A stretch of 64,000 nt of DNA from sequence record MT446416.1. One strand, 5' to 3'. How positions within the stretch are numbered: the first letter of the stretch is position 1; the number at the start of each line of letters is the position of its first letter. The DNA is from Escherichia virus TH47. Position numbers and translations under genes: made by a program. Of this stretch, positions 1-13,915 are shown piece by piece. Below the pieces are notes generated by a model. It saw only the letters and a program-made list of their open reading frames with translations. It was not told the DNA's origin and did no database searches.

Positions 1-302
1 CACCGTATGCACTTTCTAACTTCTCGCCAGTGTGATCATCAGTTAGTGAGTCATCCTCATAGTTCACGTCTACGCCCGTGATGTAAAACTGGCTATCGTC
101 TGGATCATTGAAATTAATTTTCTGAATGTTTACAATAACTGTATTGATTCCCAGGACACCGCCATCAGCCGTTACAAAGTACTGATAGTTTTCACAACCG
201 CCTGAATTGAAACCGTAATTAATTTCGGCCCGACCATCATTTAAACGCAGTGCCTGGGCGATGATTTCGTTTTCAAAGTTAGATTGAGCGATTGAGATCA
301 TT
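1..302 (-). CDS. hypothetical protein, C-terminus outside window
   Basis: ATG at 302 (minus) preceded by AGGAA; frame open to window edge. Confidence 0.5.
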
Positions 303-365
303 TTGTAGTTCCTTGTTTGCTTAAGATGGGACTATTATATAATAGCCCCGTTGTGTTGTCTAGTA

Positions 366-833
366 CTATTTCACGTTAATTTCAAAGTACTGCTCTTTGA
401 TGTTTTCCTGTTGGTAAATCTCGTTTAATGCTTTAAGATCTAACACCTGTTTACCTGCGGCCCGAATATACTTGTTAAGAGTCGCTAACAGCTTCTCAGG
501 CGTGTTTGTAGTCTTACGTGTTGGGATCTTATCGTGTCCCATAGCGTAGTACTGTTTACGTGGAATAGTACTGATAACGCTGCGGTACGGTTCCATGATC
601 AGCTTGTCTGTGTATTCGTCGCTATCCCCGAACTTCATACCGTGGATCGCAAAGGTCATCATCATGCGGTCGTTATCGCGGATATTGTGGGGGCAATCGG
701 CAAGCTCGCGAGTCAGTGACATAGTGATCCCCACGTCGCCACCCAGCGGTAAAGGTCGGGCGATAAAGAAACCGTTAGGGAATACTTTCAGGAAGTTTTC
801 TTGTACTGCTGCGACGAATTCGATGCTATTCAT
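366..833 (-). CDS. hypothetical early protein (155 aa)
   Basis: ORF with AAGGA RBS 8 nt upstream; promoter/stem-loop module directly upstream. Confidence 0.65.
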   Translation of the reverse strand: MNSIEFVAAVQENFLKVFPNGFFIARPLPLGGDVGITMSLTRELADCPHNIRDNDRMMMTFAIHGMKFGDSDEYTDKLIMEPYRSVISTIPRKQYYAMGHDKIPTRKTTNTPEKLLATLNKYIRAAGKQVLDLKALNEIYQQENIKEQYFEINVK

Positions 834-854
834 AATTCATTTCCTTAATTAGTG

Positions 855-913
855 GGGGAAGTTGTTTCCCCTCTCGATGAAAAACATTATACGCCAATTG
901 AGATAGTTTGCAA
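855..913 (-). promoter_or_regulatory. early promoter + 5'-UTR stem-loop module
   Basis: minus strand TTGCAA-N16-TATAAT, then hairpin GGGGAAnnnnnTTCCCC before RBS. Confidence 0.6.
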
Positions 914-1002
914 GTACTTTTTAAAAATAGTTTTCAGTACTCAATACTTATATAATAGATACACTTATGCACCCGGTGGGCTAGTGAGCTATCTCTCAAT
1001 GA

Positions 1003-1037
1003 ATATATAATAGCAAAATGGCTGACCGAAGTCAACC
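1003..1037 (-). promoter_or_regulatory. terminator-promoter cassette (copy a)
   Basis: minus-strand hairpin GGTTGAC-TTCG-GTCAGCC then T-rich tract; TTGACT inside stem serves as -35 for downstream TATTAT. Confidence 0.55.
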
Positions 1038-1048
1038 ACTTTTTTCAT

Positions 1049-1189
1049 TTATTTTTTAGCTTTTAGAATCGCCGCCTTTCGCGTCATGCCTTGCTTAATG
1101 TACTCCTTTACTTTCGCTTTACGTGCTTTCGCTTTATTTGCTTTCGTAAATGCCGAACAACTTTTATAGTTTAAACCTGTTGGATTCAT
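1049..1189 (-). CDS. small basic protein (46 aa)
   Basis: ATG directly after stop of upstream peptide gene (TAAATG); below ORF-track cutoff; followed by cassette terminator. Confidence 0.45.
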   Translation of the reverse strand: MNPTGLNYKSCSAFTKANKAKARKAKVKEYIKQGMTRKAAILKAKK

Positions 1190-1279
1190 TTAAATCACCA
1201 TAAAGAATAGATAGGTTACTAACAACGCCGCGATCAATGCACCGATCACCGCCGAACTGTAATAAGCAAATGATTTCAT
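1190..1279 (-). CDS. hydrophobic peptide (29 aa)
   Basis: ATGA start/stop overlap with upstream gene; single predicted transmembrane helix. Confidence 0.4.
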   Translation of the reverse strand: MKSFAYYSSAVIGALIAALLVTYLFFMVI

Positions 1280-1428
1280 TTTTTAGCCTGGAAGTAATGT
1301 TTAATTTGTGCGGCGGTCAGTGCACAATTTCGCAGGAAGTTTTCTGTATAACTGCGGCGAGTACTGAAAGAAAATTGACCTTTGCCGTTGCCGATAGTAA
1401 CATCAAACCGAGCGTTGTATTGTTTCAT
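1276..1428 (-). CDS. small protein (50 aa)
   Basis: ATG with GGAGA RBS; first gene behind module at 1448-1508. Confidence 0.45.
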   Translation of the reverse strand: MKQYNARFDVTIGNGKGQFSFSTRRSYTENFLRNCALTAAQIKHYFQAKK

Positions 1429-1447
1429 TTTGATTCTCCTTGTATCA

Positions 1448-1508
1448 GGGAGGAACCATTTCCCCCCCCTCTATGTAAAACATTATACAGTACTGAAAAC
1501 TAATTGCA
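1448..1508 (-). promoter_or_regulatory. early promoter + 5'-UTR stem-loop module
   Basis: TTGCAA-N16-TATAAT and GGGAGGAACCATTTCCCCCC hairpin. Confidence 0.6.
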
Positions 1509-1709
1509 AGTATTATTTTCTAAAAAATGATTGTATGCTGAATCAACCACTCTTTCGATAACATACGCCAACGGCCCGTATCCAACTACATGACTACAAT
1601 AGAAAGGACTACGATTAGAATCATCGTATGCAAATACTTTTTCAGGATCTGCATCAATCACATACATATTAACCTCTAAGATGTCGATCTTATCCTGTAC
1701 AGTAAGCAT
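1500..1709 (-). CDS. hypothetical protein (69 aa)
   Basis: internal ATG with AGGT RBS directly after stop of 1711..1962; the longer ORF-track version overlaps the neighbour. Confidence 0.45.
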   Translation of the reverse strand: MLTVQDKIDILEVNMYVIDADPEKVFAYDDSNRSPFYCSHVVGYGPLAYVIERVVDSAYNHFLENNTCN

Positions 1710-1710
1710 A

Positions 1711-1962
1711 TTAATTACCTTTTTCAATGTTTGATAATTCTTCCCAAAAACTTCCCGGATCAATATTATCATAATCCCCTGTAACGTCCTGTAACGCATT
1801 CTCAGGCTGTTTAACGGCTGGGGTAGCCATAGCCATTGCCTGGACTTGTTCGACGCTATAACGCTCATATAGGCGGCATTCTTCCGGTGTTAACATAGCA
1901 TCAATGCGTTTCATTGGTTTAATGATGCTTTCAACTTCATTCAGTACTTGATTAACGTTCAT
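1711..1962 (-). CDS. hypothetical acidic protein (83 aa)
   Basis: ATG with GAGGA RBS. Confidence 0.6.
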   Translation of the reverse strand: MNVNQVLNEVESIIKPMKRIDAMLTPEECRLYERYSVEQVQAMAMATPAVKQPENALQDVTGDYDNIDPGSFWEELSNIEKGN

Positions 1963-2013
1963 GGTATAATCCTCAATATAAGCGGCCTAAATCGACCGCT
2001 AACGATGTTTTGA

Positions 2014-2283
2014 TTAATAGGTGTATGGTTGACGCTCAAACAATGATTGCACGTTGTACGCCCCGCTAATGGGCTTCGCTGGTATGTCGATCTTATATTT
2101 CTCACGCTTAAAGATAATAAAACGGCAATTGTTCTTAACATCAAAATTGATTGAACGTTCCAGGAGTTTTCCATCGTGCACAAATACAAGATAACCGCTC
2201 GCTACTTGTTTTGTAGTACTGGTTGCAACCATTGACCGCCTAACATGCGTACCTGCATCGATTAAAGTACTGATATTTTTCAT
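2014..2283 (-). CDS. hypothetical protein (89 aa)
   Basis: ATG with AGAGGA RBS; promoter-like region and hairpin upstream (2290-2350). Confidence 0.6.
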   Translation of the reverse strand: MKNISTLIDAGTHVRRSMVATSTTKQVASGYLVFVHDGKLLERSINFDVKNNCRFIIFKREKYKIDIPAKPISGAYNVQSLFERQPYTY

Positions 2284-2363
2284 TTTACTATCCTCTTAAT
2301 TTGATTTAATTTCTTTCCCCTATGCAGACACTATATCAAAGTATCTGCATAAAGTAAAGCTAA

Positions 2364-2708
2364 TTAAAGATCTTTTTTGCGTTTAACATCAGTTACCGAA
2401 CTGTAAACAGTGATATTATTGTCACGGCAAAAACGGGAAAGATAAGAACCGCGTAAAAACTCTTTACCTTCCATATTAATAACCTTGCTAAATTCTTCCA
2501 TTGCTACAGTGTCAAAGTGATCCCCATAGCCATATTGGAACGGCACGTTTACTACTTCAATAAATTCGCCATTGATTTCAACATCTACCGTTAAAGAGAA
2601 ATAAGTATTACCATAAGACGCCTGGAACCAACGCCGGGCTGCAATATGTACAACTTCAACAGAAGACAGGTTGATGTTTTGTGCTGTGATAGTGTTGATG
2701 ATAGCCAT
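2364..2708 (-). CDS. hypothetical protein (114 aa)
   Basis: ATG with AAGAGGAA RBS; module upstream. Confidence 0.65.
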   Translation of the reverse strand: MAIINTITAQNINLSSVEVVHIAARRWFQASYGNTYFSLTVDVEINGEFIEVVNVPFQYGYGDHFDTVAMEEFSKVINMEGKEFLRGSYLSRFCRDNNITVYSSVTDVKRKKDL

Positions 2709-2726
2709 TTTTTGTTTCCTCTTAGT

Positions 2727-2782
2727 GGGGGAACCATTCCCCTTGATGTAATGTATTATACTTTATCTGATTTACTTTGCAA
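2727..2782 (-). promoter_or_regulatory. early promoter + stem-loop module
   Basis: TTGCAA-N16-TATAAT; hairpin GGGGGAACCATTCCCC. Confidence 0.6.
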
Positions 2783-2790
2783 GTACTTTT

Positions 2791-3018
2791 TTAATTTAAT
2801 TCATCCAGGCAAAGGATACGTTCTACACCTAAATCAGTTAAACTAATAGACGGCACTTGATAGGTTTCAATGTATGCTACACTTGCCCACTGACCGAACT
2901 CATTAACGGCCCAGGTATCCATTGCAAAATGCAATTCCGCACCTGCCTTGTTGGTAATGACTGCAACTACTTGTTCGTTGCCAGTAGTACCAGATACGCG
3001 AGTAATGATAATAGCCAT
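2791..3018 (-). CDS. hypothetical protein (75 aa)
   Basis: ATG at 3018 downstream of module; ORF-track N-terminal extension would run through the promoter module. Confidence 0.55.
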   Translation of the reverse strand: MAIIITRVSGTTGNEQVVAVITNKAGAELHFAMDTWAVNEFGQWASVAYIETYQVPSISLTDLGVERILCLDELN

Positions 3019-3038
3019 TGTTTTGATTCCTTTTATTT

Positions 3039-3103
3039 GGAGGGGAAACTGTTTCCCCCCCTCTCGATGTAAAACATTATACGCTAATCTCTTTATAGTG
3101 CAA
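3039..3103 (-). promoter_or_regulatory. early promoter + stem-loop module
   Basis: TTGCAC-N16-TATAAT; hairpin GGAGGGGAAACTGTTTCCCCCC. Confidence 0.6.
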
Positions 3104-3253
3104 GTACTTTTTATTACTTTTTGCAAAATACTTTAAACGCTCTCAATCGCTCTATAACAACATTAACGCCACCAGCTAGGGAAATGCATCAGATATTCAG
3201 TTTAATGCGTTAGAATCGTTTCTAGGCGGTGCTGGTGGCCTGGTAAACGGTAA

Positions 3254-3282
3254 ACACAAAAAATCCCACTGTTTAAGGTGGG
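3254..3282 (-). terminator. rho-independent terminator
   Basis: minus-strand hairpin CCCACCTTAAACAGTGGG followed by T-run, just after stop of 3306..3788. Confidence 0.6.
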
Positions 3283-3305
3283 CTAGTGATTCAGTACTTT
3301 AATTG

Positions 3306-3788
3306 TTATGCTTCAACTTTGCGATGAGCTTCGATCCATTCCTCGCGAGTCAATCCGCTTTCTTTGATAGCATCCAGTACTACCGAAATGCAGTTACCAC
3401 GCACCGGAATCAGATATTCTTCCCCGTTATCAAGTACTACCGCTACACGTTCTTGAATCCATTTTTTAGGCTTAGACTCCGGCTTATCTTCCCCATACTT
3501 AACCGCCAGGGCTTTTTGTGCCATCTCGGTAACTACTTCCATATCCAGCCCATCTACTACCGCCTGGATACTTTCAATTGTTGCTTGTAGTTCTGCTTCA
3601 CGGGCCGCCTTCGCTGCTTCAATCTCTGCCGCTTTATTTGCTTGTAGTTCTTTCGCAGTACTGTAAGCGATGTTAAAATTATTGCGAACCGCTTTCATGG
3701 TATCGTTATCCAGTTCAGCCAGGATCTCTGCCGCTACGTTAGTTTCATTTGCTACCAGTGCTTTGATGAATGATTTGATGTTAGCCAT
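3306..3788 (-). CDS. hypothetical coiled-coil protein (160 aa)
   Basis: ATG at 3788 with GAGGA RBS 8 nt upstream (ORF-track start is a TTG further up); Ala/Glu/Lys-rich heptad-like N-terminal half. Confidence 0.6.
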   Translation of the reverse strand: MANIKSFIKALVANETNVAAEILAELDNDTMKAVRNNFNIAYSTAKELQANKAAEIEAAKAAREAELQATIESIQAVVDGLDMEVVTEMAQKALAVKYGEDKPESKPKKWIQERVAVVLDNGEEYLIPVRGNCISVVLDAIKESGLTREEWIEAHRKVEA

Positions 3789-3889
3789 TAGATAAATCCT
3801 CAATTAAAGTTTAGTTTACGTTCATTAGTGTATCAAAGTTTAATCGACGTGTCCAGTTTTTCGTTCGACTTACTGGCGGTCTACTTAGT

Positions 3890-3939
3890 GTTCCCCGTCT
3901 TGATGTAATACATTCTACGCCTTTTTGCGGTAATGTCAA
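3890..3939 (-). promoter_or_regulatory. early promoter (degenerate module)
   Basis: TTGACA-N17-TAGAAT on minus strand; -35 abuts the stop codon of the HNH gene. Confidence 0.5.
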
Positions 3940-4500
3940 CTATCTTTTTGAATATTTTTTAATGTATCTCATAATCGCTGGCGGTGTAGTATTATACCTT
4001 TCAGCTAGTATAATTGAGTTAGCATCATGTGAATATGGTTTATACAGTTGTATAACTTCGTTAATCTCTTTTTCAGTTAGTTTTGTCCTAACATGCCTTA
4101 TACCTTCACTCTCATACTTCACTATTTTTTTAATAGGCGTTGCGTCGTCATGTATTCCGGTATCGTGTGCGTGTATTATGTTTTCCTTTCCGGTTGACCA
4201 TTCCAAATTACTGTAATGATTATTACTTTTATTTCTATCCTTATGATTAACCTGGACTTTCTTTCTTTTTGTTTTTTGTGCCCATTCTATTTGTGCAGGT
4301 GTCGGAGGGGGTAGATAGTTGGATGCAACCAATCTTTGAACATACTCAAAATGTTTTGATTTGTCTTCTCTTACAAGCGTTAATCTATGATACCCATCAG
4401 GGCGAATTGTTGGAGAAAGAATATTACTACCATAACGCCTAACATCCCCATACTCACTAATTTCATAAAGGGGATTCTCTTTTAATTGTTTCCATTCCAT
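3940..4500 (-). CDS. HNH homing endonuclease (I-HmuI/I-TevIII-like)
   Basis: N-terminal MEWKxLK..YEISEYG..DGYHRLTL and HNH core VNHKDRNKSNNHYSNLEWSTGKEN resemble the I-HmuI family (from memory). Confidence 0.8.
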   Translation of the reverse strand: MEWKQLKENPLYEISEYGDVRRYGSNILSPTIRPDGYHRLTLVREDKSKHFEYVQRLVASNYLPPPTPAQIEWAQKTKRKKVQVNHKDRNKSNNHYSNLEWSTGKENIIHAHDTGIHDDATPIKKIVKYESEGIRHVRTKLTEKEINEVIQLYKPYSHDANSIILAERYNTTPPAIMRYIKKYSKR

Positions 4501-4529
4501 TGATTTGATCCTTTTAGTTTCTCCTTTGT

Positions 4530-4574
4530 ATTATATCACACAAAAACAAAAAAAGCCCACTGTTTAAGGTGGGC
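4530..4574 (-). promoter_or_regulatory. terminator followed by extended -10 promoter
   Basis: hairpin GCCCACCTTAAACAGTGGGC + T-run, then TGTGATATAAT and RBS of the HNH gene. Confidence 0.55.
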
Positions 4575-4581
4575 TAGTGAT

Positions 4582-4881
4582 TTATAAACAGTTAATTACT
4601 CCTGTGTGCGTTACTTTCTCAGTATCCATTACAGTGACCGAACCGCGTTTAGTACTGGCATCATAATAAATTGTTGTGCTACCTTTCGCATCTTCTTCAT
4701 GGAACGGGCCGTTTTTAAATGCTTCTGGCTGGATCTCTAGATCCTTTAAAACAATATCGCCAGTTCTTTCTTCGGTCATTGCAACAGTGCACTGAATGAA
4801 TTTTTCACTACTTACATCTAACGACGCATTAACAGCGAAAGAGGAAACAGATAAAGCCAGGGAGATGATTGCTACTTTCAT
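4582..4881 (-). CDS. secreted small protein (99 aa)
   Basis: ATG at 4881 with AAGGA RBS; N-terminal signal-peptide-like MKVAIISLALSVSSFAVNA. Confidence 0.6.
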   Translation of the reverse strand: MKVAIISLALSVSSFAVNASLDVSSEKFIQCTVAMTEERTGDIVLKDLEIQPEAFKNGPFHEEDAKGSTTIYYDASTKRGSVTVMDTEKVTHTGVINCL

Positions 4882-4901
4882 TTGATTATCCTTAGTTACC
4901 A

Positions 4902-4955
4902 GGGGAACCGTTCCCCCTATGTAAAACATTATACGCGTTTAAAAACTATTATCAA
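4902..4955 (-). promoter_or_regulatory. early promoter + stem-loop module
   Basis: TTGATA-N16-TATAAT; hairpin GGGGAACCGTTCCCC. Confidence 0.6.
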
Positions 4956-4989
4956 GTACTTTAATATAAAAGTATTTGAAAAATAATTG

Positions 4990-5018
4990 TTGACAACTGC
5001 ATCCAGTACTGGCATAAT
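4990..5018 (+). promoter_or_regulatory. plus-strand sigma70-like promoter (CCAGTACTGG class)
   Basis: TTGACA-N17-CATAAT with CCAGTACTGG in spacer; back-to-back with minus module. Confidence 0.5.
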
Positions 5019-5024
5019 ACCTAC

Positions 5025-5118
5025 ATAAAGACAAAACAGTCTCCAACCCACCGGGTGCATAGATCCGTCTATTAAATGATTCAGTACTGCAAAATAAAGG
5101 GGATCAATTGATCCCCTC
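5025..5118 (+). ncRNA. candidate small RNA
   Basis: runs from promoter 4990-5018 through CCCACCGGGTGCA box (5047-5059) to perfect palindromic hairpin GGGGATCAATTGATCCCC (5099-5116); no ORF. Confidence 0.3.
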
Positions 5119-5122
5119 TGTA

Positions 5123-5344
5123 TTACTTAGTAAGGTATAAACAGAAGTCACCTTTATTTGCTACGCCGCCAGTGTAACGCGATGAATAGTTAGAAATATC
5201 TTGTACTTCTGCTATTACCAGTGTATCATCATTCATTTCGTCGCAGAAGCAAACGGCTGGATCTTTTACGCCGATATTGTCGGCATGTTCCCGCATAGAT
5301 TTAACCAGTGCTTCCAGTTGAGAAAGAGTAGTGATATTAGCCAT
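5123..5344 (-). CDS. hypothetical protein (73 aa)
   Basis: ATG at 5344 with GAGGA RBS; terminated by hairpin 5099-5116 + T-run. Confidence 0.55.
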   Translation of the reverse strand: MANITTLSQLEALVKSMREHADNIGVKDPAVCFCDEMNDDTLVIAEVQDISNYSSRYTGGVANKGDFCLYLTK

Positions 5345-5363
5345 TGTATTTTCCTCATTACCA

Positions 5364-5422
5364 GGGAGAACCATTTCTCCCCTCTATGTAAACTATTATA
5401 CAGTACTGGAAACTAATTGCAA
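5364..5422 (-). promoter_or_regulatory. early promoter + stem-loop module
   Basis: TTGCAA-N16-TATAAT; hairpin GGGAGAACCATTTCTCCC. Confidence 0.6.
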
Positions 5423-5534
5423 GTACTTAATGGTAAGATCCGCAACGGTTGCAGTAGTTTTATTTGTTCGATCATGATGCTTACTCCTGGTTAAAGGCGG
5501 GAACCATTCCCCGCCATTGTCACAGTACTGAATA

Positions 5535-5774
5535 TTACATTCCAACCATTGCAGCACGGATCGCAGTAGTGCTATACTTGAATCCGTCCGGCGTTGTAGT
5601 AGTACCGTTGGCTTTTAATCTGCGGTACATACATTCCGCTGCAATATCTTTCGTTTTACTTTGAGCGATGCAATTTTGAGCAATCCGGTACAATGATTCA
5701 TCGTTATTGATCCAAAGGCTTACATTCCAATGAGTTTTGTTTTTGTGTCCGTTGTAAGTTTTAGTACTAGCCAT
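5535..5774 (-). CDS. hypothetical protein (79 aa), paralog of 7563..7790
   Basis: shared motif T(K)T(F/Y)NGHKNxxHWNVSLWINNDESLY and C-terminal AAMVGM; GAGGA RBS. Confidence 0.7.
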   Translation of the reverse strand: MASTKTYNGHKNKTHWNVSLWINNDESLYRIAQNCIAQSKTKDIAAECMYRRLKANGTTTTPDGFKYSTTAIRAAMVGM

Positions 5775-5795
5775 TTTTTAATCCTCTTATATAGT

Positions 5796-5852
5796 GGGGA
5801 ACTATTCCCCACCTGATGTAAAGTATTATACGCTTTTAAACTTAGTTTGCAA
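5796..5852 (-). promoter_or_regulatory. early promoter + stem-loop module
   Basis: TTGCAA-N16-TATAAT; hairpin GGGGAACTATTCCCC; near-identical to module 7153-7209. Confidence 0.6.
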
Positions 5853-5863
5853 GTACTTTTTAA

Positions 5864-6475
5864 TTAATATGCGATTGATTCTACTACGCCATCAATAACA
5901 TTGAATTGATATTCGTTACCCTCAATCAGTGCCGTAATGTTTTCAGTAGTGAATTGATCCTTATATGCATTCTCTAAATCACGGTAAAACTTGCGTGACA
6001 ATTCACGAATAGTATCAGTTAGTAGTTTCTCAAGCTCATTAACTAACGTTTCTTGTTTTGAGGTTAAATCAGTGTAAGCCGATTCAATGTACCCGCTTAC
6101 AGTGTTCTCATGCGAGTAATGGGAGTGAGATCGCTTTACACTCATCGCCAAATCATCTTCATTCAGCAGGTGACGGATTGAGCGATACTTAGTTAATGCT
6201 CTTACCTTGCGTAAAAACTTCACTGCGTCAACGTGGTCAGTACTGATTGATGCACCGTCACCCTGGGACCAAAAACCACTGAATTGTATTTCAGCGTCAT
6301 TAATGCCATATTCTGGTAGTACTGTTTCTTTATAGTATTCAATTTCACTTTCAGAAAAATAATCGTCGTTTGTGTTTTTTTCACGTTCCCGAACCAGTTC
6401 GATAGCTGACGTTTTTTGTTCTGCGTTCAATTCAGAAAAATCCATAACATAAGTAGTAGTAGTGATAGTTTTCAT
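5864..6475 (-). CDS. hypothetical acidic protein (203 aa)
   Basis: ATG with GAGGG RBS; Asp/Glu-rich; two tandem promoters upstream. Confidence 0.65.
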   Translation of the reverse strand: MKTITTTTYVMDFSELNAEQKTSAIELVREREKNTNDDYFSESEIEYYKETVLPEYGINDAEIQFSGFWSQGDGASISTDHVDAVKFLRKVRALTKYRSIRHLLNEDDLAMSVKRSHSHYSHENTVSGYIESAYTDLTSKQETLVNELEKLLTDTIRELSRKFYRDLENAYKDQFTTENITALIEGNEYQFNVIDGVVESIAY

Positions 6476-6507
6476 TTTGTAACCCTCATTCAGTAGTTGA
6501 TGTAAGT

Positions 6508-6535
6508 ATTATACGCTTTTAAAAACAATTGTCAA
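6508..6535 (-). promoter_or_regulatory. sigma70-like promoter
   Basis: TTGACA-N16-TATAAT directly upstream of 5864..6475. Confidence 0.55.
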
Positions 6536-6586
6536 ACTATTTTATCAGGGGAGTTTTTCGTATGCCTTACTCCTGGGCTACTCAAC

Positions 6587-6653
6587 GGGGAGTTACTTAT
6601 TTCGTTCCCCGTCCTGATGTAATACATTATACGCCGTTAAACATAGTATGCAA
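6587..6653 (-). promoter_or_regulatory. early promoter + stem-loop module (second, tandem)
   Basis: TTGCAT-N16-TATAAT; hairpin GGGGAGTTACTTATTTCGTTCCCC; no ORF between it and the next promoter. Confidence 0.5.
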
Positions 6654-6696
6654 GTACTTTTTAAAATAGTTTTCAGTACTGAATAGTAAAAAGGTA

Positions 6697-6725
6697 TTGA
6701 CAGCACTATCCAGTACTGGCATAAT
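6697..6725 (+). promoter_or_regulatory. plus-strand promoter (CCAGTACTGG class)
   Basis: TTGACA-N17-CATAAT; followed by CCCACCGGGTGCA at 6747-6759. Confidence 0.5.
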
Positions 6726-6840
6726 ATACCCCATGACAACAGCTAACCCACCGGGTGCACAATTGTAACTGTACTAAACTACTTTTTCTATAGATACACT
6801 CCCGCACCCCGTGGGCCAAATTGTTCGTTTCAATAGATAC

Positions 6841-6869
6841 ATTATGCCAGTACTGACAAAATAAGTCAA
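6841..6869 (-). promoter_or_regulatory. minus-strand promoter (CCAGTACTGG class), convergent with 6697-6725
   Basis: TTGACT-N17-CATAAT on minus strand; followed by inverted CCCACGGGGTGCGG box (6804-6817). Confidence 0.5.
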
Positions 6870-6899
6870 TACTGGCAATTGTAAAGATTTGTAAACTAC

Positions 6900-7130
6900 T
6901 TATACTGCAATCGCGTCCAGGCTATAATAATAATAAGTGCCGTATTGGTGTACTTTATTACCTTTTATTTCAGTACTGAATGAATCCGAACGATTAGCAT
7001 ATGATGTTAATTTAAAGTACTTTGCTTTACTAATACGTTGCCATACACCGCAGATCCGCTGTAAGTAAGTAGTTTTATTAGTGGTAGTATCTTTTACGGT
7101 TTTAACTTCGGTCATATACATATTAGCCAT
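6900..7130 (-). CDS. hypothetical protein (76 aa)
   Basis: ATG at 7130 with AAGAGGA RBS; module upstream. Confidence 0.6.
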   Translation of the reverse strand: MANMYMTEVKTVKDTTTNKTTYLQRICGVWQRISKAKYFKLTSYANRSDSFSTEIKGNKVHQYGTYYYYSLDAIAV

Positions 7131-7152
7131 TTTTTTAATCCTCTTATGTAGT

Positions 7153-7209
7153 GGGGAAGTATTCCCCATCTGATATAAAGTATTATACGCTTTTAAACTT
7201 AGTATGCAA
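7153..7209 (-). promoter_or_regulatory. early promoter + stem-loop module
   Basis: TTGCAT-N16-TATAAT; hairpin GGGGAAGTATTCCCC. Confidence 0.6.
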
Positions 7210-7217
7210 GTACTTTT

Positions 7218-7481
7218 TTATAGTACTGCAATCTTTTTAGTACGGTACACGGTAACGCGATTGCCCTTGCGGTCGTGCTTTATTTCTACTACTCGCCGCG
7301 ATACACTATCAGGACTTTTTAACGCCGCCAACCAGTACTGTAAAGATCTGGCTTTACTTTGCTTTACTACCGCCCAACGTTTACCACGTTCCGATTGTCC
7401 GCCCATATCTTTAAACGTCGCCCCGTCCAGACGTGCGGCGATCCGTGCTTGTTCACGCGTCACAAAGTACATAATATTCAT
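7218..7481 (-). CDS. hypothetical basic protein (87 aa)
   Basis: ATG start; promoter-like TTGCAC...TATAAT upstream. Confidence 0.55.
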   Translation of the reverse strand: MNIMYFVTREQARIAARLDGATFKDMGGQSERGKRWAVVKQSKARSLQYWLAALKSPDSVSRRVVEIKHDRKGNRVTVYRTKKIAVL

Positions 7482-7562
7482 GCTGTTACCCCATCGTTGA
7501 CGTATAAAAGAAATCTATTATAAAGTACTATCACCGTGCAATAGTACTTTAAATATATTCTA

Positions 7563-7790
7563 TTACATTCCAACCATCGCCGCACGCACGCTTGATTTGC
7601 TATAACGTGCCCCATCAGGCGTGTGAGTACCTAAAAGGCGTAACATCCGCTCAACCGCTTTATCTCGCGTGTTGGTGCTTTTAATACTTTCCAGGGCCAA
7701 TTGGTACAGTGATTCATCGTTATTGATCCAAAGGCTTACATTCCAATGGTTGTAGTTTTTATGGCCGTTGAAAGTTTTAGTAGTAGTCAT
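7563..7790 (-). CDS. hypothetical protein (75 aa), paralog of 5535..5774
   Basis: paralog motifs as above; AAGAGGAA RBS. Confidence 0.7.
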   Translation of the reverse strand: MTTTKTFNGHKNYNHWNVSLWINNDESLYQLALESIKSTNTRDKAVERMLRLLGTHTPDGARYSKSSVRAAMVGM

Positions 7791-7810
7791 TTTTAATTCC
7801 TCTTAAGTGC

Positions 7811-7870
7811 AGCGGGAACCATTCCCGCTCTCGATGTAATACATTATACGCTATTTGATAGTACTGTCAA
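7811..7870 (-). promoter_or_regulatory. early promoter + stem-loop module
   Basis: TTGACA-N16-TATAAT; hairpin AGCGGGAACCATTCCCGCT; about 50 nt identical to module 8270-8330. Confidence 0.6.
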
Positions 7871-7883
7871 ACTAATTTTTAAC

Positions 7884-8246
7884 TTATTCGTAAATTTTGC
7901 CACTGTCAGCCCATACCAGGAAACGAGGCATATTATCCCATGCATCTTGTTTTAAATTTAAACCGTGTAATACTTCTGTACTTTCCATTCCTGGTACTGG
8001 TTTACTATACACCGCGAACATTTCACCCATATACTGATAAGCCATCGTTAAATCACTGGCGATCATCTTATGGATCATCGCATCAAGCATCACGGTAGCG
8101 GCGTATTGTTCACGCTTAAGCGGCAACATTGCAATAAGTCCACGATAAGCTGAAATGTGAATTTTTACCGTTTCTGCCGGAAGATCTTTCATCTCGTCGC
8201 GGAAGTTAACCAGGTTAGCAATAATTTTATTGATTTGTGTCGCCAT
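7884..8246 (-). CDS. hypothetical protein (120 aa)
   Basis: ATG with RBS; module upstream. Confidence 0.65.
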   Translation of the reverse strand: MATQINKIIANLVNFRDEMKDLPAETVKIHISAYRGLIAMLPLKREQYAATVMLDAMIHKMIASDLTMAYQYMGEMFAVYSKPVPGMESTEVLHGLNLKQDAWDNMPRFLVWADSGKIYE

Positions 8247-8269
8247 CGTTTTTAATCTCTCTTAAAGTG

Positions 8270-8330
8270 CAGCGGGAACCATTCCCGCTCTCGATGTAAT
8301 ACATTATACGCCGTTAAACATAGTATGCAA
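8270..8330 (-). promoter_or_regulatory. early promoter + stem-loop module
   Basis: TTGCAT-N16-TATAAT; hairpin AGCGGGAACCATTCCCGCT. Confidence 0.6.
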
Positions 8331-8380
8331 GTACTTTCTACAAATACTTTTAAAATAGTTTTCTTTCTATATAGGGGAAC

Positions 8381-8432
8381 TATCTTTCAGTACTATCTTT
8401 CAGTACTATCATTCAGTACTATCATTCAGTAC
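8381..8432. repeat. 4 x 13-bp direct repeat TATC(T/A)TTCAGTAC
   Basis: four contiguous units read directly. Confidence 0.85.
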
Positions 8433-8596
8433 TGAATCAATCCACTAAATCATCCCTATACCCCGTAAAACGGCCTCAGACGCATTCTAACGCATTAATA
8501 CACCTAAGCTATACATTTGCACCATTCCAATCATTCCAGGGCTTTACGGGCCGTTGAAACGCGTTAAATTATTTTCAATTATTTTGTTTTTAGGTA

Positions 8597-8624
8597 TTGA
8601 CTTGATCCTGAAAAAGCGTATAAT
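8597..8624 (+). promoter_or_regulatory. plus-strand sigma70-like promoter
   Basis: TTGACT-N16-TATAAT; CCCACAGGGTGCGG box about 30 nt downstream. Confidence 0.5.
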
Positions 8625-8813
8625 TACTACATAAGCCGGACACAAGGCACTAACCCACAGGGTGCGGAATTACGCCCAAAATTCAAGATATAAAAAAAGG
8701 ATACACTCCCGCACCCTAGCAGGTCAACGCACTTTCTCAGTACTGAAATATAGTACCATAGTACTTGCCAGGATAGCAAGCAAATTAATTAAAACTTTTT
8801 TGCTTCCAGGGTA

Positions 8814-8841
8814 TTGCTTTATTTTTTCAGTACTGTATAAT
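8814..8841 (+). promoter_or_regulatory. plus-strand promoter
   Basis: TTGCTT-N16-TATAAT; CCCACCGGGTGCA box at 8870-8882. Confidence 0.45.
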
Positions 8842-8937
8842 AGTTTCATCAAGTCGAGAAAGACTCAAGCCCACCGGGTGCATAGTTACGCCCAAAATTC
8901 AGTACTGAAAAAATTTTTAAAATATCTGTCCAGGCCG

Positions 8938-8966
8938 TTGACATTGCCCCCAGTTTATAAGATAAT
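8938..8966 (+). promoter_or_regulatory. plus-strand promoter
   Basis: TTGACA-N17-GATAAT; two GGGGAA...TCCCC-type hairpins downstream. Confidence 0.45.
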
Positions 8967-9059
8967 GATTCCAGATTCAGAAAAATCTAACTCCAGATAC
9001 TGCGGGGAAACTATCCCCACGCGGTAGGGGAACTATTGGAAAAAACAAAATAAAATTTT

Positions 9060-9200
9060 GATTTAGCCGTCTATACTTCCAGACGTGTAACCATCTAGCC
9101 GTTTAGCCGTCCAAACGTCTAGCCATCCAGCCATCCAGAAATCTAGCCGTTTAGCCGTCTAGATGGATAGCCATCTTTACTTCCATACTTCTGGAGGTCT
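9060..9200. repeat. iteron cluster (TAGCCRTY x about 9) with CCAAAATCC repeats just downstream
   Basis: tagccgtc / tagccgtt / tagccatc units within about 130 bp, interleaved with tctaga-type palindromes. Confidence 0.8.
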
Positions 9201-10099
9201 AGACATATCTACGTCCAAAATCCACCCAGGGTTACTACACCCAAAATCCGTCAGTACTATACCATAGATCTATCTTTTGAAAGGGAGTATTCAGTACTGC
9301 CATCATAGCCCTCACTATGTTACCCTAGGAGGATGAAGACTATCATGTAGTACTGAATACTGTTAGAGGGAATCCACCAGCTTGTGCTGGTGGCATAATG
9401 CTTTAGATTAAAATCAGTACTGACACCATTCTGTTAATATCAGTACTGTTATTACGATTTTCATATGAGGTTCAAAAAGATGTACCACCACAGGAGGAAC
9501 TATCTTTTCTGTACTGTCTCACGACAGGAGGTAGAGTAAATGAATTGTTCGCAGCAACTCATCTCTCTATGTAGAACATTATACAGTACTGAATCATAAT
9601 GTCAATAACTTTCTTTCACCATTCAGTACTGATATTCTTGAGAACTACCCGTCTACAAACATCATTATATCCCACAAATCATAAACGTCCCAACGTAAAT
9701 TTCAACTTTCGAAGATCCAACTTTTATTTCATAGGTACTCCAAAATTTTTAGGATCGAGATTTAGGATGGAGTACTAACCAACTTTTTGCTGGAGCCTCA
9801 AGGGGTAATTGAATTTTACCCCGAAGGGTAAAAGGGTAATTGAAATTAAGGTGAAAGTAATAATTCAGTACTAATCATTGCGTGATTACTTTTGATTACA
9901 TTTGATGTAATTTGCAAAATGGAAAAGGAGCTTGGAAACTAAAAAGTACGGTAGACTTCCTCTGCCTACTTAGTGGGATATCGACACCTTCAGTACTGAA
10001 TACTTTTGGGGCAGTACTGCTACGTTCTTGATTAAACGTGCACATTCCTGTACTCTATTACACTCTAGTACTCACTACTGATCAGTACTGATCACTACA

Positions 10100-10150
10100 G
10101 TGATTATAAATGATTACTTAAATGTTTATATATGATTACTTATGATTACT
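10100..10150. repeat. ATGATTACTTA direct repeats (3 copies)
   Basis: read directly. Confidence 0.7.
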
Positions 10151-10154
10151 TATG

Positions 10155-10175
10155 ACAAAGAGAAGCCAAAAGCTT
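10155..10175 (-). terminator. terminator of small-gene array
   Basis: hairpin GAGAAGC-nnnn-GCTTCTC followed by T-rich tract on minus strand. Confidence 0.5.
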
Positions 10176-10312
10176 CTCTGTAGAGTTACGGGGTTTAGCC
10201 TGGAGAGAATCCTAGTGATCGCATTTGTCCAGGCTGAATTTTAACAATTCGCCTGTACATAAAGGTTGTTCACTAGGAGCTTCCCCAGTCTCTATGTGCT
10301 CTATATGTTGAA

Positions 10313-10522
10313 TTACTTCCTATATATAAGTATTAACATATAGTAGTACTGATTATGCTGTACATTCTCTTTAATATTATAAGGGTCTATAGCAATCTCG
10401 GTACATCTGTTAAATGCATATCTATTAAATGCCAGTACTATTAGATTGTTAACCCATGCTTGTTCGTTTTCTTTTAGTTTACTTATATAGTACTCTTTAT
10501 ACTCTTTATACTCTTTATGCAT
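10313..10522 (-). CDS. small leader-family protein (69 aa)
   Basis: N-terminal MHKEYKEYKEYYISKL (9-bp unit repeated 3 times); C-terminal hydrophobic YxLILIY. Confidence 0.6.
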   Translation of the reverse strand: MHKEYKEYKEYYISKLKENEQAWVNNLIVLAFNRYAFNRCTEIAIDPYNIKENVQHNQYYYMLILIYRK

Positions 10523-10535
10523 AGTATTATCTCTA

Positions 10536-10718
10536 TTAATATGATAGTACTAGTGTTAGTACTGAGCACAATTGTTCTTTATAGTTCTTAGGGTATATAG
10601 AATCTTTTATGCACTCATTGAAGTGCCATAGGTATAATCTTGGGTCGCATTCTTTATATATTTTTACGGGGACGAATGTTAGTTTTCTTATATAGAAGTC
10701 TTTATGTTCTTTATTCAT
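10536..10718 (-). CDS. small leader-family protein (60 aa)
   Basis: MNKEHKDFYIRKL leader. Confidence 0.6.
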   Translation of the reverse strand: MNKEHKDFYIRKLTFVPVKIYKECDPRLYLWHFNECIKDSIYPKNYKEQLCSVLTLVLSY

Positions 10719-10920
10719 ATAGGAATAGTATACCTATGATGCCTGAGTACAGGTTAGTACTGTTATTATTGTCGTTTGCGTTTAAAGTCATTTGAATACA
10801 ATTATTGTAGCATAATCTGCCGAAATATGTATCAGTACTTAAAGGTGGTGTAGTTCTTAGAAACATTTGTTCTGATGTACTGAGGTGTTTGGAGTAGTAT
10901 TCTTTATGTTCTTTATTCAT
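10711..10920 (-). CDS. small leader-family protein (69 aa)
   Basis: MNKEHKEYYSKHL leader; body paralogous to 11285..11491 (CYNNCIQ...YSGIIGILFLYE). Confidence 0.65.
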   Translation of the reverse strand: MNKEHKEYYSKHLSTSEQMFLRTTPPLSTDTYFGRLCYNNCIQMTLNANDNNNSTNLYSGIIGILFLYE

Positions 10921-10925
10921 ATTAG

Positions 10926-11111
10926 TTAGTGTCTGTATATAAGTAATAGTAAGAATACGTACTGCACCTGTTCATCTTTAGTATTGAGTACTGTACGTAT
11001 TGCGTCATGGAACAAGAATATAGTACTTGGGTCATTAGAATTTAAGGGGTTTACGGGGACGGCGTGTTTGTAGTTCCCTTTAACAAATTGTATATAGTAT
11101 TCTTTATACAT
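10926..11111 (-). CDS. small leader-family protein (61 aa)
   Basis: MYKEYYIQFV leader. Confidence 0.6.
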   Translation of the reverse strand: MYKEYYIQFVKGNYKHAVPVNPLNSNDPSTIFLFHDAIRTVLNTKDEQVQYVFLLLLIYRH

Positions 11112-11112
11112 A

Positions 11113-11292
11113 TTAGTACCTGAATATTAGGGCGAGAATGTAGTACATATAATTTTGGTTCACAGCACAGTCAGTATGGTCAATGAATTGTTGGGTCTTT
11201 TTCTTATCCTTGAAATCTATTGGGTTTAGTAGTATAAGCATTTGGGAGTTTATATCCAGATGGCTTACGTAGAATTCTTTATAGTTATTCAT
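11113..11292 (-). CDS. small leader-family protein (59 aa)
   Basis: MNNYKEFYVSHL leader; ATGAATAA start/stop overlap with upstream gene; below ORF-track cutoff. Confidence 0.5.
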   Translation of the reverse strand: MNNYKEFYVSHLDINSQMLILLNPIDFKDKKKTQQFIDHTDCAVNQNYMYYILALIFRY

Positions 11293-11491
11293 AGAAGAAT
11301 ATTAGTCCTATTACACCTGAGTACATAATATTTTTGTTATTGTATTCTAATGCGTCTAGAGTACTACGTATACAATTATTAAAGCAATCTCTGGCGTGTT
11401 GTGTATCTAAACGTAAAGGTGATACACTCCTTAGAAACATTTGTTCTTCGTTGCTGAGGTATTTGGTGTAGAATTCTTTCTGTTCGTTCAT
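11285..11491 (-). CDS. small leader-family protein (68 aa)
   Basis: MNEQKEFYTKYL leader; CFNNCIR...YSGVIGLIFFYE. Confidence 0.65.
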   Translation of the reverse strand: MNEQKEFYTKYLSNEEQMFLRSVSPLRLDTQHARDCFNNCIRSTLDALEYNNKNIMYSGVIGLIFFYE

Positions 11492-11501
11492 ATTGGCCTC
11501 T

Positions 11502-11690
11502 TTAGTACACGAAAGCTAGGTACAGTACATGATACAGTACTTGATTATAGTTGTAATAATTTATCACGCATTTAGTGCACGTAATGAAGTAGTCTTTTTC
11601 GTAGTTTATTTCTATACCGCGAGGTTCATCTTCTAACAGATTACCTTGAAGGTGCGGTGGTAAATCTTTTATGTAGTATTCTTTATACAT
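11502..11690 (-). CDS. small leader-family protein (62 aa)
   Basis: conserved start MYKEYYIKDL at 11690; ORF-track N-terminal extension is read-through of the upstream copy. Confidence 0.55.
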   Translation of the reverse strand: MYKEYYIKDLPPHLQGNLLEDEPRGIEINYEKDYFITCTKCVINYYNYNQVLYHVLYLAFVY

Positions 11691-11691
11691 A

Positions 11692-11882
11692 TTAGTACCT
11701 GAATATAAGTAGGATAGTGTTATATAGTTGGTCATAACTACTACTATTTTCTATACTGCGTTCTATGCAGTTATTGAATCCCAGTACTGCCAAATCGTTA
11801 TCCAGGGGGGGACTTTATATCTGGCGTAGTATTCAAAAATGCTGGGGAGAAATTGTGTGTAGTATTCTTTGTGGTTGTTCAT
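11692..11882 (-). pseudogene. frameshifted leader-family member (poly-G7 tract 11805-11811)
   Basis: starts MNNHKEYYTQFL; frame breaks at the homopolymer; one extra C/G restores a 63-aa ORF ending ...GFNNCIERSIENSSSYDQLYNTILLIFRY. Confidence 0.5.
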
Positions 11883-11892
11883 ATTGTTCTCT

Positions 11893-12075
11893 TTAGTACT
11901 TATATATTAGGGCGAGGATGTAGTACAGTTTATATATTCTATCCTCGTACATTAGGGTGTACTTAGTACATTCTTGAAACATTGTTTTTGCGTCATCTTT
12001 TATGCCCAATGCAACGTTTGGTATATGGCTCTGTAGATGCATTGGAAGTTTCTCTATGTAGTATTCTTTATACAT
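11893..12075 (-). CDS. small leader-family protein (60 aa)
   Basis: conserved start MYKEYYIEKL at 12075 (ATGTATAA overlap with stop of 12068..12739). Confidence 0.55.
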   Translation of the reverse strand: MYKEYYIEKLPMHLQSHIPNVALGIKDDAKTMFQECTKYTLMYEDRIYKLYYILALIYKY

Positions 12076-12739
12076 AGTTTGAAATATACGTAATGAGGTG
12101 ATGAATTTTCTTATCAGTACTGATAAGTTCCTGTACATGTTTTGTTAGTTTGTACGCGTTTTTATAGAGTCCTGGATTATCGATTACAGTACTGTACATG
12201 AATTCTTCTTCTGGTGTTAATTCTTTGTTTTGTAGTTCTTTTAGGAATTGCAGTACTGTAATAGTTTCTTCTGTACGTTGCTGTTGGAAGAAATGCATGT
12301 TATCGTGTACTTTTTCTGAACCAATGCAGTACATATCGCCGATTTGGAATTGTGCTGTACGGATATCATGGGTGCTATTACAATTCCCGAAGAAGTATAC
12401 ATTCCCGAAAGATAGAATTATAGTGCACGGGATATTATCCAGGTGCATATAGATATAGATAGATGCGTCCTCTAGTGCTTTTGTGCTGGTATTAGTACTC
12501 AATACTTTTAAATCAGTATTATAGATATTCATATAATGAACAGCTATATTATTTTTCTTCATGTACAATTCAAGGTTCTTTGATACGTTAACTCCATTTG
12601 TACTGGTTTTTTTACTTTTCTTTAGGTTCTTTAGTACATTAGGGTGATAAGTATATGCATTAGTAATAGATTCAGCCTGGATGGATTGCAAGTACTTAAA
12701 GTGCTGTAGGTATCGTTTACTTTGTGGATTGAGTTTCAT
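12068..12739 (-). CDS. long leader-family protein (223 aa)
   Basis: N-terminal KRYLQHFKYL leader-like; C-terminal domain paralogous to 21657..22307. Confidence 0.6.
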   Translation of the reverse strand: MKLNPQSKRYLQHFKYLQSIQAESITNAYTYHPNVLKNLKKSKKTSTNGVNVSKNLELYMKKNNIAVHYMNIYNTDLKVLSTNTSTKALEDASIYIYMHLDNIPCTIILSFGNVYFFGNCNSTHDIRTAQFQIGDMYCIGSEKVHDNMHFFQQQRTEETITVLQFLKELQNKELTPEEEFMYSTVIDNPGLYKNAYKLTKHVQELISTDKKIHHLITYISNYV

Positions 12740-12750
12740 ATTGGTTTCCT

Positions 12751-12930
12751 TTATATAGATGCGAGTGCGAGGATTTCCCTGTAGGGATTATCTTGTGTTA
12801 GTGCGTGATGAATGCAGCTATTGAGATTAATATTTTTAGTACTGTTAGTTGCTAGGTTGTAGTACTTCACGAAGGTGTCGTACATGAAACGGTCTTTAAT
12901 GCTTATGTGTTCTATATAGTATTCTTGCAT
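12751..12930 (-). CDS. small leader-family protein (59 aa)
   Basis: conserved start MQEYYIEHI at 12930. Confidence 0.5.
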   Translation of the reverse strand: MQEYYIEHISIKDRFMYDTFVKYYNLATNSTKNINLNSCIHHALTQDNPYREILALASI

Positions 12931-12995
12931 ATTATTCCTTAGATTTAGATTAGTTTTAGTACTTCTCTGTACGTGTACTTTTCGTTTTGTGCTTC

Positions 12996-13118
12996 TACTG
13001 TACATGATAGAAAGTATCGTTTTTATCTCTTTTGTTCCCGACTGTGTAGTACCTTTGGAATTGATTATAAATGTATCTATCTTTGTGCTGAAGTTTATAG
13101 ATATAGAATTCTTGCATA
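12996..13118 (-). pseudogene. truncated leader-family copy
   Basis: MQEFYIYKL... ORF of 40 codons; flanking sequence duplicates 12921-12980. Confidence 0.35.
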
Positions 13119-13125
13119 GAGTACC

Positions 13126-13311: not shown

Positions 13312-13321
13312 AGTATTCTCT

Positions 13322-13507: not shown

Positions 13508-13618
13508 TGTAATGTAATTAGCCTTATTATGTTAAAGTACTCGGTCCCTGGTACACCTTGTAGAATATTATCAACTACATTTATTTGGTGCAGGATGAGT
13601 ACATTCGGTGCGGATCTT

Positions 13619-13717: not shown

Positions 13718-13728
13718 ATAGTACTCTT

Positions 13729-13914: not shown

Positions 13915-13915
13915 A

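Follow-up and report, generated by a model that had tools for sequence, protein, structure and literature searches.

Promoter and leader-hairpin modules in a small-gene array of Escherichia virus TH47

Escherichia virus TH47 carries a head-to-tail array of small open reading frames (ORFs) on the minus strand at positions 1–8350 of the 64,000-nt stretch of its genome that was analysed here (accession MT446416.1; hereafter the window). Many of these ORFs are preceded by a repeated module in which a sigma-70-like promoter is joined to a G/C-rich hairpin in the leader, and these modules are named after the start coordinate of their −35 hexamer (M8330 and so on). The array region is ~90% identical, in 5–12 mosaic pieces, to the Asteriusvirus (RaK2-like, 350 kb) jumbo coliphages slurp01, phAPEC6, 121Q, PBECO4, and G17.

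Thirteen minus-strand promoter sites occur within 855–8343, with −35 starts at 8330, 7870, 7209, 6653, 6535, 5852, 5422, 4955, 3939, 3103, 2782, 1509, and 913. The search pattern was TTGNNN-N15–19-TANAAT; the sites found fit TTGNNN-N16-TA(T/G)AAT, and every spacer is exactly 16 nt long. A unit consists, in order, of an A-rich/AGTACT upstream element, a sigma-70 promoter, a start region (..CAT..), a stem-loop of 6–10 bp, a Shine–Dalgarno (SD) site, and an ATG. Ten of the 13 promoters lead into a G-rich/C-rich hairpin of the GGGGAA..TTCCCC type that begins 9–15 nt past the −10 box (e.g., AGCGGGAA tgg TTCCCGCT and GGGGAGAA atgg TTCTCCCT), after which an unstructured A-rich stretch with the SD site runs up to the ATG. 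The three exceptions are M6535, which has no hairpin, and M6653 and M3939, which have longer structured leaders that both open with GACGGGGAAC. A preliminary description of this DNA had proposed about 13 promoter–hairpin modules that precede most of the small genes; the 13 promoters are confirmed, 10 with the canonical hairpin, and about 14 of the 21 minus-strand ORFs have their own promoter, with the canonical hairpin in 10 of these cases. The −35 sequence given there, TTGCAA, is the commonest form but is found in only five modules, the others having TTGCAT (three), TTGACA (three), TTGCAC (one), and TTGATA (one). A stringent composite pattern returns 5 matches versus 0.06 expected from shuffles, and a repeat finder that was run independently returns an 11-copy, 62-nt family that coincides with the module positions. 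The individual modules and one hairpin remnant are as follows.

8244–8342 (minus), M8330: UP/AGTACT upstream element; −35 TTGCAT at 8330–8325; −10 TATAAT at 8308–8303; hairpin at 8289–8271 (AGCGGGAA tgg TTCCCGCT); SD site; ATG at 8246, first gene of the array, 120 amino acids (aa).
7788–7882 (minus), M7870: −35 TTGACA at 7870–7865; −10 at 7848–7843; hairpin at 7829–7811; ATG at 7790, DUF7249 gene, 75 aa.
7128–7221 (minus), M7209: −35 TTGCAT; −10 at 7187–7182; hairpin at 7168–7152 (TGGGGAA tac TTCCCCA); ATG at 7130, 76 aa.
6540–6665 (minus), M6653: canonical promoter with −35 at 6653 and −10 at 6631–6626; conserved, structured, ORF-less transcript of ~75 nt (6618–6540).
6473–6547 (minus), M6535: TTGACA-N16-TATAAT without a hairpin; ATG at 6475, 203 aa.
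5772–5864 (minus), M5852: −35 TTGCAA; −10 at 5830–5825; hairpin at 5813–5793 (GGTGGGGAA tag TTCCCCACT); ATG at 5774, DUF7249 paralogue, 79 aa.
5496–5515 (minus), hairpin-only remnant: GGCGGGGAATGGTTCCCGCC, with no recognisable promoter; truncated 24-codon ORF downstream, ATG at 5475.
5342–5434 (minus), M5422: −35 TTGCAA; extended −10 TGTATAAT at 5402–5395; hairpin at 5382–5363 (GGGGAGAA atgg TTCTCCCT); ATG at 5344, 73 aa.
4879–4967 (minus), M4955: −35 TTGATA; −10 at 4933–4928; hairpin at 4919–4900; ATG at 4881, 99 aa with a signal-peptide-like N-terminus.
3786–3951 (minus), M3939: TTGACA-N16-TAGAAT; leader of 125–130 nt with an M6653-like onset (GACGGGGAAC); ATG at 3788, 160 aa.
3016–3115 (minus), M3103: −35 TTGCAC; −10 at 3081–3076; hairpin at 3061–3039 (GGGGGGGAAA cag TTTCCCCTCC); ATG at 3018, 75 aa.
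2706–2794 (minus), M2782: −35 TTGCAA; −10 at 2760–2755; hairpin at 2742–2728 (GGGGAA tgg TTCCCC); ATG at 2708, 114 aa.
1426–1521 (minus), M1509: −35 TTGCAA; extended −10; hairpin at 1468–1447, including a G·U pair; ATG at 1428, 50 aa.
831–925 (minus), M913: −35 TTGCAA; −10 at 891–886; hairpin at 871–855 (GGGGAA acaac TTCCCC); ATG at 833, 155 aa.

Two pairs of modules had been singled out as almost identical ahead of differing genes. The first pair is close (5774–5864 versus 7131–7221, repeat D4, 93% identity over 91 nt), but the second (7790–7851 versus 8250–8311, repeat D5, 89% identity over 62 nt) is identical only from the −10 box through the hairpin, where M7870 and M8330 agree at 100% compared with 67% in the −35/spacer half. 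The downstream genes do differ within the pairs, but genes 7790–7563 and 5774–5535 (minus) are DUF7249 paralogues whose 5′ ends, together with partial modules, form a 103-nt repeat of 88% identity (D6); a DUF7249 homologue is also present in Vequintavirus ZYD.

Other repeated elements accompany the modules. The M6653 transcript (6618–6540, minus) is not a gene and is predicted to close on itself (AUCAGG...CCUGAU) around an internal hairpin. Relatives have two copies of this type of transcript per genome, each followed by a hairpin-less promoter, and the M3939 leader (3904–3789) is related to it. No covariation was found among 10 copies of this ORF-less RNA, which may represent either a long leader or a small RNA. 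AGTACT palindromes number 228 in the whole window (~22 expected), with the highest density at 8001–16000, and 60 in the first 10 kb (2.7 expected). The sequence is found most often as CAGTACTG, is frequent within genes too, and at modules either adjoins the −35 hexamer (AAAGTACTTGCAA) or sits in the spacer, where it creates an extended −10 box (CAGTACTGTATAAT). AGTACT could be a protein-binding or DNA-modification site.

The modules are widespread in related phages. The same scan of five Asteriusvirus loci returned 17–21 promoter and hairpin units in each, all on the gene strand and with equal spacing. Absence of the modules from related genomes had been named in the preliminary description as grounds for giving up the idea; every relative that was examined has them at orthologous positions. 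A module hairpin of the form GGGGGAA acatc TTCCCCC is present in the Klebsiella jumbo phage fENko-Kae01. The rV5-like Vequintavirus ZYD shares the architecture, with −10 boxes that are more degenerate and stems of another sequence (GGGCGGCA atag TGCCGCTC and GGCGGGAAA tgg TTTCCCGCC), and contigs in IMG/VR share it as well, including one of 109 kb with 8 units within 12.6 kb. Strong promoter-like sites at 26–57 kb of the window are followed by short leaders that lack a hairpin in all but at most two cases (32907 and perhaps 48211), which indicates that the hairpin marks one class of promoter. Papers on rV5, CBB, fENko-Kae01, fEgEco12, and PA5oct describe promoters or terminal repeats, and none of them describes a unit of promoter plus leader hairpin; a broad search of the literature yielded only papers on retroviral LTRs.

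The stem-loop appears to be an RNA structure that is selected in the sense strand at the 5′ end of the message. Promoters were defined without reference to hairpins and the best inverted repeat downstream of each was then taken, which gave 60 unique hairpins with 439 Watson–Crick pairs, 16 sense-strand G·U pairs, 1 A·C pair (a G·U pair in the antisense strand), and 6 other mismatches. Transitions from Watson–Crick pairs should yield both wobbles equally, so the 16:1 asymmetry argues for selection on sense-strand RNA. Covariation was scored in 33 loop-anchored, ungapped triloop hairpins because MAFFT alignment of whole modules put the stems out of register. Both-sided changes occur in 7 of 10 stem pairs (42 cells), and the covariation score is 0.392 compared with 0.169 ± 0.019 in shuffles (none of 500 attains the observed value) and 0.08–0.18 in slid-partner controls. 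The G·U asymmetry and the both-sided changes indicate that pairing, rather than sequence, is selected in the transcribed strand, as would be expected of a 5′ stabiliser hairpin.

The same data bear on two other readings. The inverted repeat might work as double-stranded DNA, either as the operator of a dimeric repressor of the early promoters or as a cruciform or recombinase target, and a near-perfect palindrome at a fixed place just past the start site does occupy a common operator position. This is scarcely probable since the wobble asymmetry has no meaning in duplex DNA, the half-site sequences change in a compensatory way, and loops of 3, 4, or 5 nt place the half-sites at variable distances, contrary to a fixed dimer spacing. 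Alternatively, the modules might be recent copies of a promoter region that were spread by duplication and gene conversion, with a functionless hairpin carried along. Modules that are mosaic and homogenised by recombination, and single-sequence folding z-scores that are unremarkable, would suit this account; yet pairing is maintained through both-sided changes and G·U intermediates, orthologues with differing stems still pair (AGCGGGAA/TTCCCGCT here versus GACGGGGG/CTCCCGTT in 121Q), and pairing persists in another phage subfamily with different stem sequences, all of which make it highly improbable. A leader-peptide start at a loop AUG was dropped because most loops (UAG, UGG, CGG, CAC) lack AUG, and an N4-type hairpin promoter was set aside because the hairpins lie downstream of strong sigma-70 promoters.

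An intrinsic (rho-independent) terminator requires a G/C-rich stem followed immediately by a U-tract, and none of the module hairpins in the window has a T-run behind it that passes this criterion, whereas canonical terminators in the same 10 kb (4575–4554, 3282–3265, and 1042–1015) do. This makes it very unlikely that the stem-loop is a terminator or attenuator of upstream read-through, as proposed for the promoter-early stem-loop (PeSL) cassettes of T4-type phages. It is true that the GGGG...CCCC stem-loops of PeSLs lower lacZ expression to a degree comparable with the rrnB T1 terminator and that ARNold labels one orthologous module hairpin as a terminator in the G17 record. However, that hairpin is only one of nine annotated ARNold terminators in the fetched G17 stretch, a hairpin downstream of the promoter that needs protection cannot prevent promoter occlusion, and true terminator stems are found in this phage in a second kind of composite, whose −35 hexamer they bear.

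In that second composite, the −35 (GGGTTGACTTCGGTCAGCCC) is part of an intrinsic terminator stem and the T-run behind this stem continues into the −10 (TTTTTGCTATAAT), with a short, hairpin-less leader; it occurs at 1042–1007 on the minus strand and at six more sites, with −35 starts at 26882, 28329, 29717, 31302, 35355, and 42473. A terminator (GCCCACCTTAAACAGTGGGC plus T-run, minus strand) is present in two copies at 3258–3291 and 4549–4582 with 97% identity (D10), so terminators too are repeated units in the region. At 362–334 (minus), a promoter-like TAGACA-N17-TATAAT with a stem (GGGGCTATTATATAATAGTCCC) that overlaps the −10 lies ahead of a gene starting at 300 and corresponds to the PeSL subclass in which the stem-loop overlaps the −10.

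Stem free energies range from −8 to −17 kcal/mol in the 10 window modules and in 103 unique leaders overall, with a mean folding energy of −13 kcal/mol in the latter. A conserved CAT lies 8 nt past the −10 box in 91 of the 103 leaders. If transcription starts at the A of this CAT, the unpaired 5′ tail is 0–7 nt long, mostly 3–5 nt, in 102 of them. In 90 of the 103 leaders, the SD zone is free of pairing.

Genes have been gained, lost, and replaced in the array with junctions in the cassettes, which supports the cassette shuffling that had been proposed. Collinear chains were built against the five Asteriusvirus relatives, and one Vequintavirus was also compared; blastn was run with a tight X-drop since default gapped blastn bridged replaced segments. 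Modules contain about 14 of the roughly 21 junctions of large indels (manual count): in the hairpin (864–868, 1472, 2737, 3065, 4918, and 5491), just upstream of the −35 (1519, 3949, 5428, 5851/5861, and 7880), or between SD site and ATG (298, 1441, 2712, and 3024), with about seven elsewhere. M2782 has two indel junctions (2712 and 2737) and M1509 has three (1441, 1472, and 1519). Phage 121Q lacks exactly M5852 and its gene (5534–5861) as one unit, and gene 833–366, which belongs to M913, is inserted here compared with all five relatives. M8330 is chimeric, its promoter half matching M6653 (94% identity) and its −10-to-hairpin half matching M7870 (100%). M4955 is a chimera whose 5′ part matches the upstream, and 3′ part the downstream, of two vB_Ec-M-J modules; the gene between those modules is absent at M4955 and the crossover lies within the shared stretch from hairpin to SD site, a pattern that matches PeSL-mediated deletion as drawn by Arbiol et al. 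(PMC2839356). These chimeras are stronger evidence than the junction count. Gene 7130–6900 follows one module type here and in phAPEC6 and another type in the four other relatives. Five window genes have homologues, in a different order, in Vequintavirus ZYD; gene 7130–6900 is ~96% identical to its ZYD counterpart at the nucleotide level from ATG to stop, whereas the preceding module is only ~67% identical, which fits a recent transfer bounded by modules.

Judging from alignment to relatives, the cassettes occupy the part of a direct terminal repeat of ~21 kb that is closest to the physical left end, which is placed near window position 9980; the array extends past the left edge of the window. 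In vB_Ec-M-J, the homologous array lies inside an annotated direct terminal repeat of 21,525 bp, and its first gene, the orthologue of window gene 8246–7884, starts 1,760 bp from the genome end and is directed inward. An equivalent arrangement is found in a PhageTerm-defined repeat in fENko-Kae01, and restriction digestion confirmed repeats of ~21 kb in fEgEco12. The 1.6 kb between the first module and ~9980 is non-coding and contains two tandem arrays, at 8379–8433 (13-bp unit, 4.2 copies, including AGTACT) and at 9064–9162 (8-bp unit TAGCCGTC, ~12 copies), which may serve in packaging, in recognition of the genome end, or in protein binding. On the plus strand, sites that resemble promoters (such as TTGACA-N17-TGGCATAAT) lead into repeated units of ~90 nt with a CCCACCGGGTGC box (D7–D9) at 4990–5120, 6697–6830, 8597–8720, 8814–8920, and 8938–8966. 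Transcription of these units would be convergent with the early genes and in at least one case would read into a palindromic terminator (5090–5120). A similar unit occurs in fENko-Kae01, and the units may give rise to antisense or convergent small RNAs. Rfam at gathering thresholds returned no match in the whole window, and ARAGORN found no tRNA or tmRNA.

All ten cassette proteins that were searched fall in PHROG families of unknown function, and Pfam recognises only DUF7249 among the cassette genes, plus an HNH/NUMOD4 homing endonuclease at 3940–4500. The part in host takeover that the preliminary description had suggested for the region is thus putative. The endonuclease gene (HNH_3/NUMOD4, minus strand) has its own promoter, and the block that contains it (3950–4548) is an insertion relative to slurp01 between a terminator and M3939. 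We infer, largely by analogy, that the array is probably expressed early, because its promoters are near-consensus for the host polymerase, it lies in the terminal repeat, and PA5oct RNA sequencing (RNA-seq) and the clustering of CBB promoters point the same way. In PA5oct, a related but distant phage, RNA-seq places most genes of the terminal repeat in the early class and shows the phage to rely on host RNA polymerase, and the repeat also houses non-coding RNAs (PMC7318152). RpoD-like promoters cluster in a region of small ORFs in phage CBB.

Taken together, the modules are probably standardised Asteriusvirus expression cassettes that combine a promoter, a 5′-terminal stem-loop acting as stabiliser and insulator, and homology for shuffling. 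Host RNA polymerase would fire each promoter straight after DNA entry. The preferred function of the stem-loop is that of a 5′-terminal stabiliser and context insulator, which would slow 5′-end-dependent decay and keep the ribosome-binding site open whichever gene follows. With a unit of ~90 nt flanking every gene, homologous recombination between units would delete, insert, replace, and reorder genes and leave their expression intact, and the comparisons indicate that such exchange takes place within the genome, between Asteriusvirus strains, and with rV5-like phages that bear the same kind of unit.

Several points weigh against this account. Promoter activity, start site, and timing are all predictions in this phage. 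Whole-gene changes end in intergenic DNA anyway, and because such DNA is mostly module here, the junction count alone is no proof that modules are the recombination substrate. Folding z-scores of single hairpins are weak (−2.1 to +0.4) because G-runs and C-runs fold well even when shuffled, and the hairpins used for covariation were chosen by pairing ability, which inflates the percentage paired. The assumed 5′ tails of 4–7 nt may exceed the length at which protection from RNase E/RppH is complete. Finally, the three loop-adjacent pairs (G-C, A-U, A-U) are invariant in the 33 triloop hairpins, which fits sequence-specific protein recognition better than pure stabilisation.

The last point leads to the main alternative, namely that the conserved hairpin top serves a whole regulon as an RNA operator, at which a phage or host protein would bind all immediate-early messages and switch the class together. 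Conceivable partners are a translational repressor, an endoribonuclease adaptor, or an antitermination/processivity factor such as lambda N at boxB. The invariant pairs produce a conserved GAA-N3–5-UUC top whose A-U pairs are unlike the choice of selection for stability alone, the hairpin is restricted to the promoter class of the terminal repeat, with at most two comparable cases at other promoter-like sites in the window, and its size is like that of protein-binding hairpins such as boxB. However, rV5-like modules have a different top (GGCGGCA atag UGCCGC) at the same position, which makes the conserved sequence specific to a lineage; gene conversion could, through concerted evolution, hold the top identical without a binding partner; no candidate binding protein was identified; and promoters every 300–500 bp make antitermination seem unnecessary. 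An RNA operator is, on balance, rather unlikely. A broader proposal, equally tentative, is that the unit is a shared adaptor through which unrelated virulent enterobacterial phages trade early genes that come ready for expression and that the hairpin top is also bound by a dedicated factor, which would control all immediate-early genes as a single RNA regulon; the phages concerned may include Asteriusvirus, other RaK2-like jumbo phages, and rV5-like Vequintavirinae, which may exchange genes during co-infection.

Jumbo phages carry tens of kilobases of small genes of unknown function that vary between close relatives, and how such regions are built and expressed is poorly understood. Cassettes of the kind proposed here provide a concrete, testable mechanism in which a portable promoter-plus-leader unit would make inserted genes expressible and supply the homology for their exchange. 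This exchange apparently crosses phage families, as in the case of the module-bounded gene that is ~96% identical to one in an rV5-like phage. More than 100 natural leader-hairpin variants with compensatory changes are a data set for 5′-end mRNA protection in E. coli, and could also be used in the design of phage or synthetic expression parts. In the fetched genome records, which are annotated only with “hypothetical protein”, the modules mark gene starts and transcription units.

Stabiliser stem-loops at the 5′ end of messages are exemplified by the hairpin of the ompA 5′ untranslated region and by the T7 phi10 leader (GGGAGACCACAACGGUUUCCC). The modules resemble both in having a G/C-rich hairpin a few nucleotides from the transcript 5′ end, followed by an open ribosome-binding site, and their stem sequence resembles the phi10 leader. 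They differ in being a multi-copy family (17–21 per fetched relative locus) that is fused to a host-type promoter, and the presumed stabilising effect may be lessened here by 5′ tails that are predicted to reach 7 nt. The lambda nut site, with boxB, likewise has a small stem-loop with a conserved top in the promoter-proximal transcript; in contrast, no boxA-like partner or N-like protein was identified for the modules, which number dozens of copies, each serving one or two genes. The pre-early genes of T5 are located in its terminal repeat, and the array resembles those of PA5oct and T5 in that small genes without known function are grouped in a long direct terminal repeat and read by host RNA polymerase. 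The PA5oct paper does not describe a promoter-plus-leader-hairpin module, and early timing in Asteriusvirus would follow by analogy.

The closest comparison is with the PeSL cassettes of T4-type phages (Arbiol et al. 2010, PMC2839356; Comeau et al. 2014, PMC4122927), in which a strong early promoter and a GGGG..CCCC stem-loop lie between small ORFans and mediate modular shuffling and mini-circle formation. The PeSL stem-loop is a terminator or attenuator and has five position subclasses, all at or before the start site: it may precede the −35, lie between the hexamers or overlap them, or directly follow the −10. The preliminary description had likened the modules to PeSLs, and this resemblance holds for composite sigma-70-type cassettes, small ORFans, and shuffling, but not for the position and likely role of the stem-loop or for the type of phage, since the best matches are to Asteriusvirus rather than to T4-type genomes. 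Both are short intergenic composites in many copies within plastic regions of small, non-essential ORFans, placed between the stop of one ORFan and the SD site and ATG of the next. Both consist of an A/T-rich upstream region (AAAAAGTAC here, by sequence match), a strong sigma-70-like promoter, a stable stem-loop of a G-run and a C-run (often polyG...polyC in PeSLs), an SD site, and an ATG. In both, the cassettes are the sites at which close relatives differ by indels and replacements, and chimeras of cassettes remain. The modules differ in that the hairpin begins past the point where transcription is expected to start and so lies within the transcribed leader (about +1 to +30 with a start at the conserved CAT), and in that it lacks a U-tract, with comparative data favouring an RNA-level role over termination; the second composite of the window, with its −35 inside a terminator stem, is closer to the classical PeSL layout than are the modules. 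Comparison across the phages shows the putative promoter, the RNA-level hairpin, and the recombination junctions, and on this basis the modules are best called PeSL-like shuffling cassettes, a variant of the T4-type PeSL in which the stem-loop would be a transcribed RNA structure of the 5′ leader.

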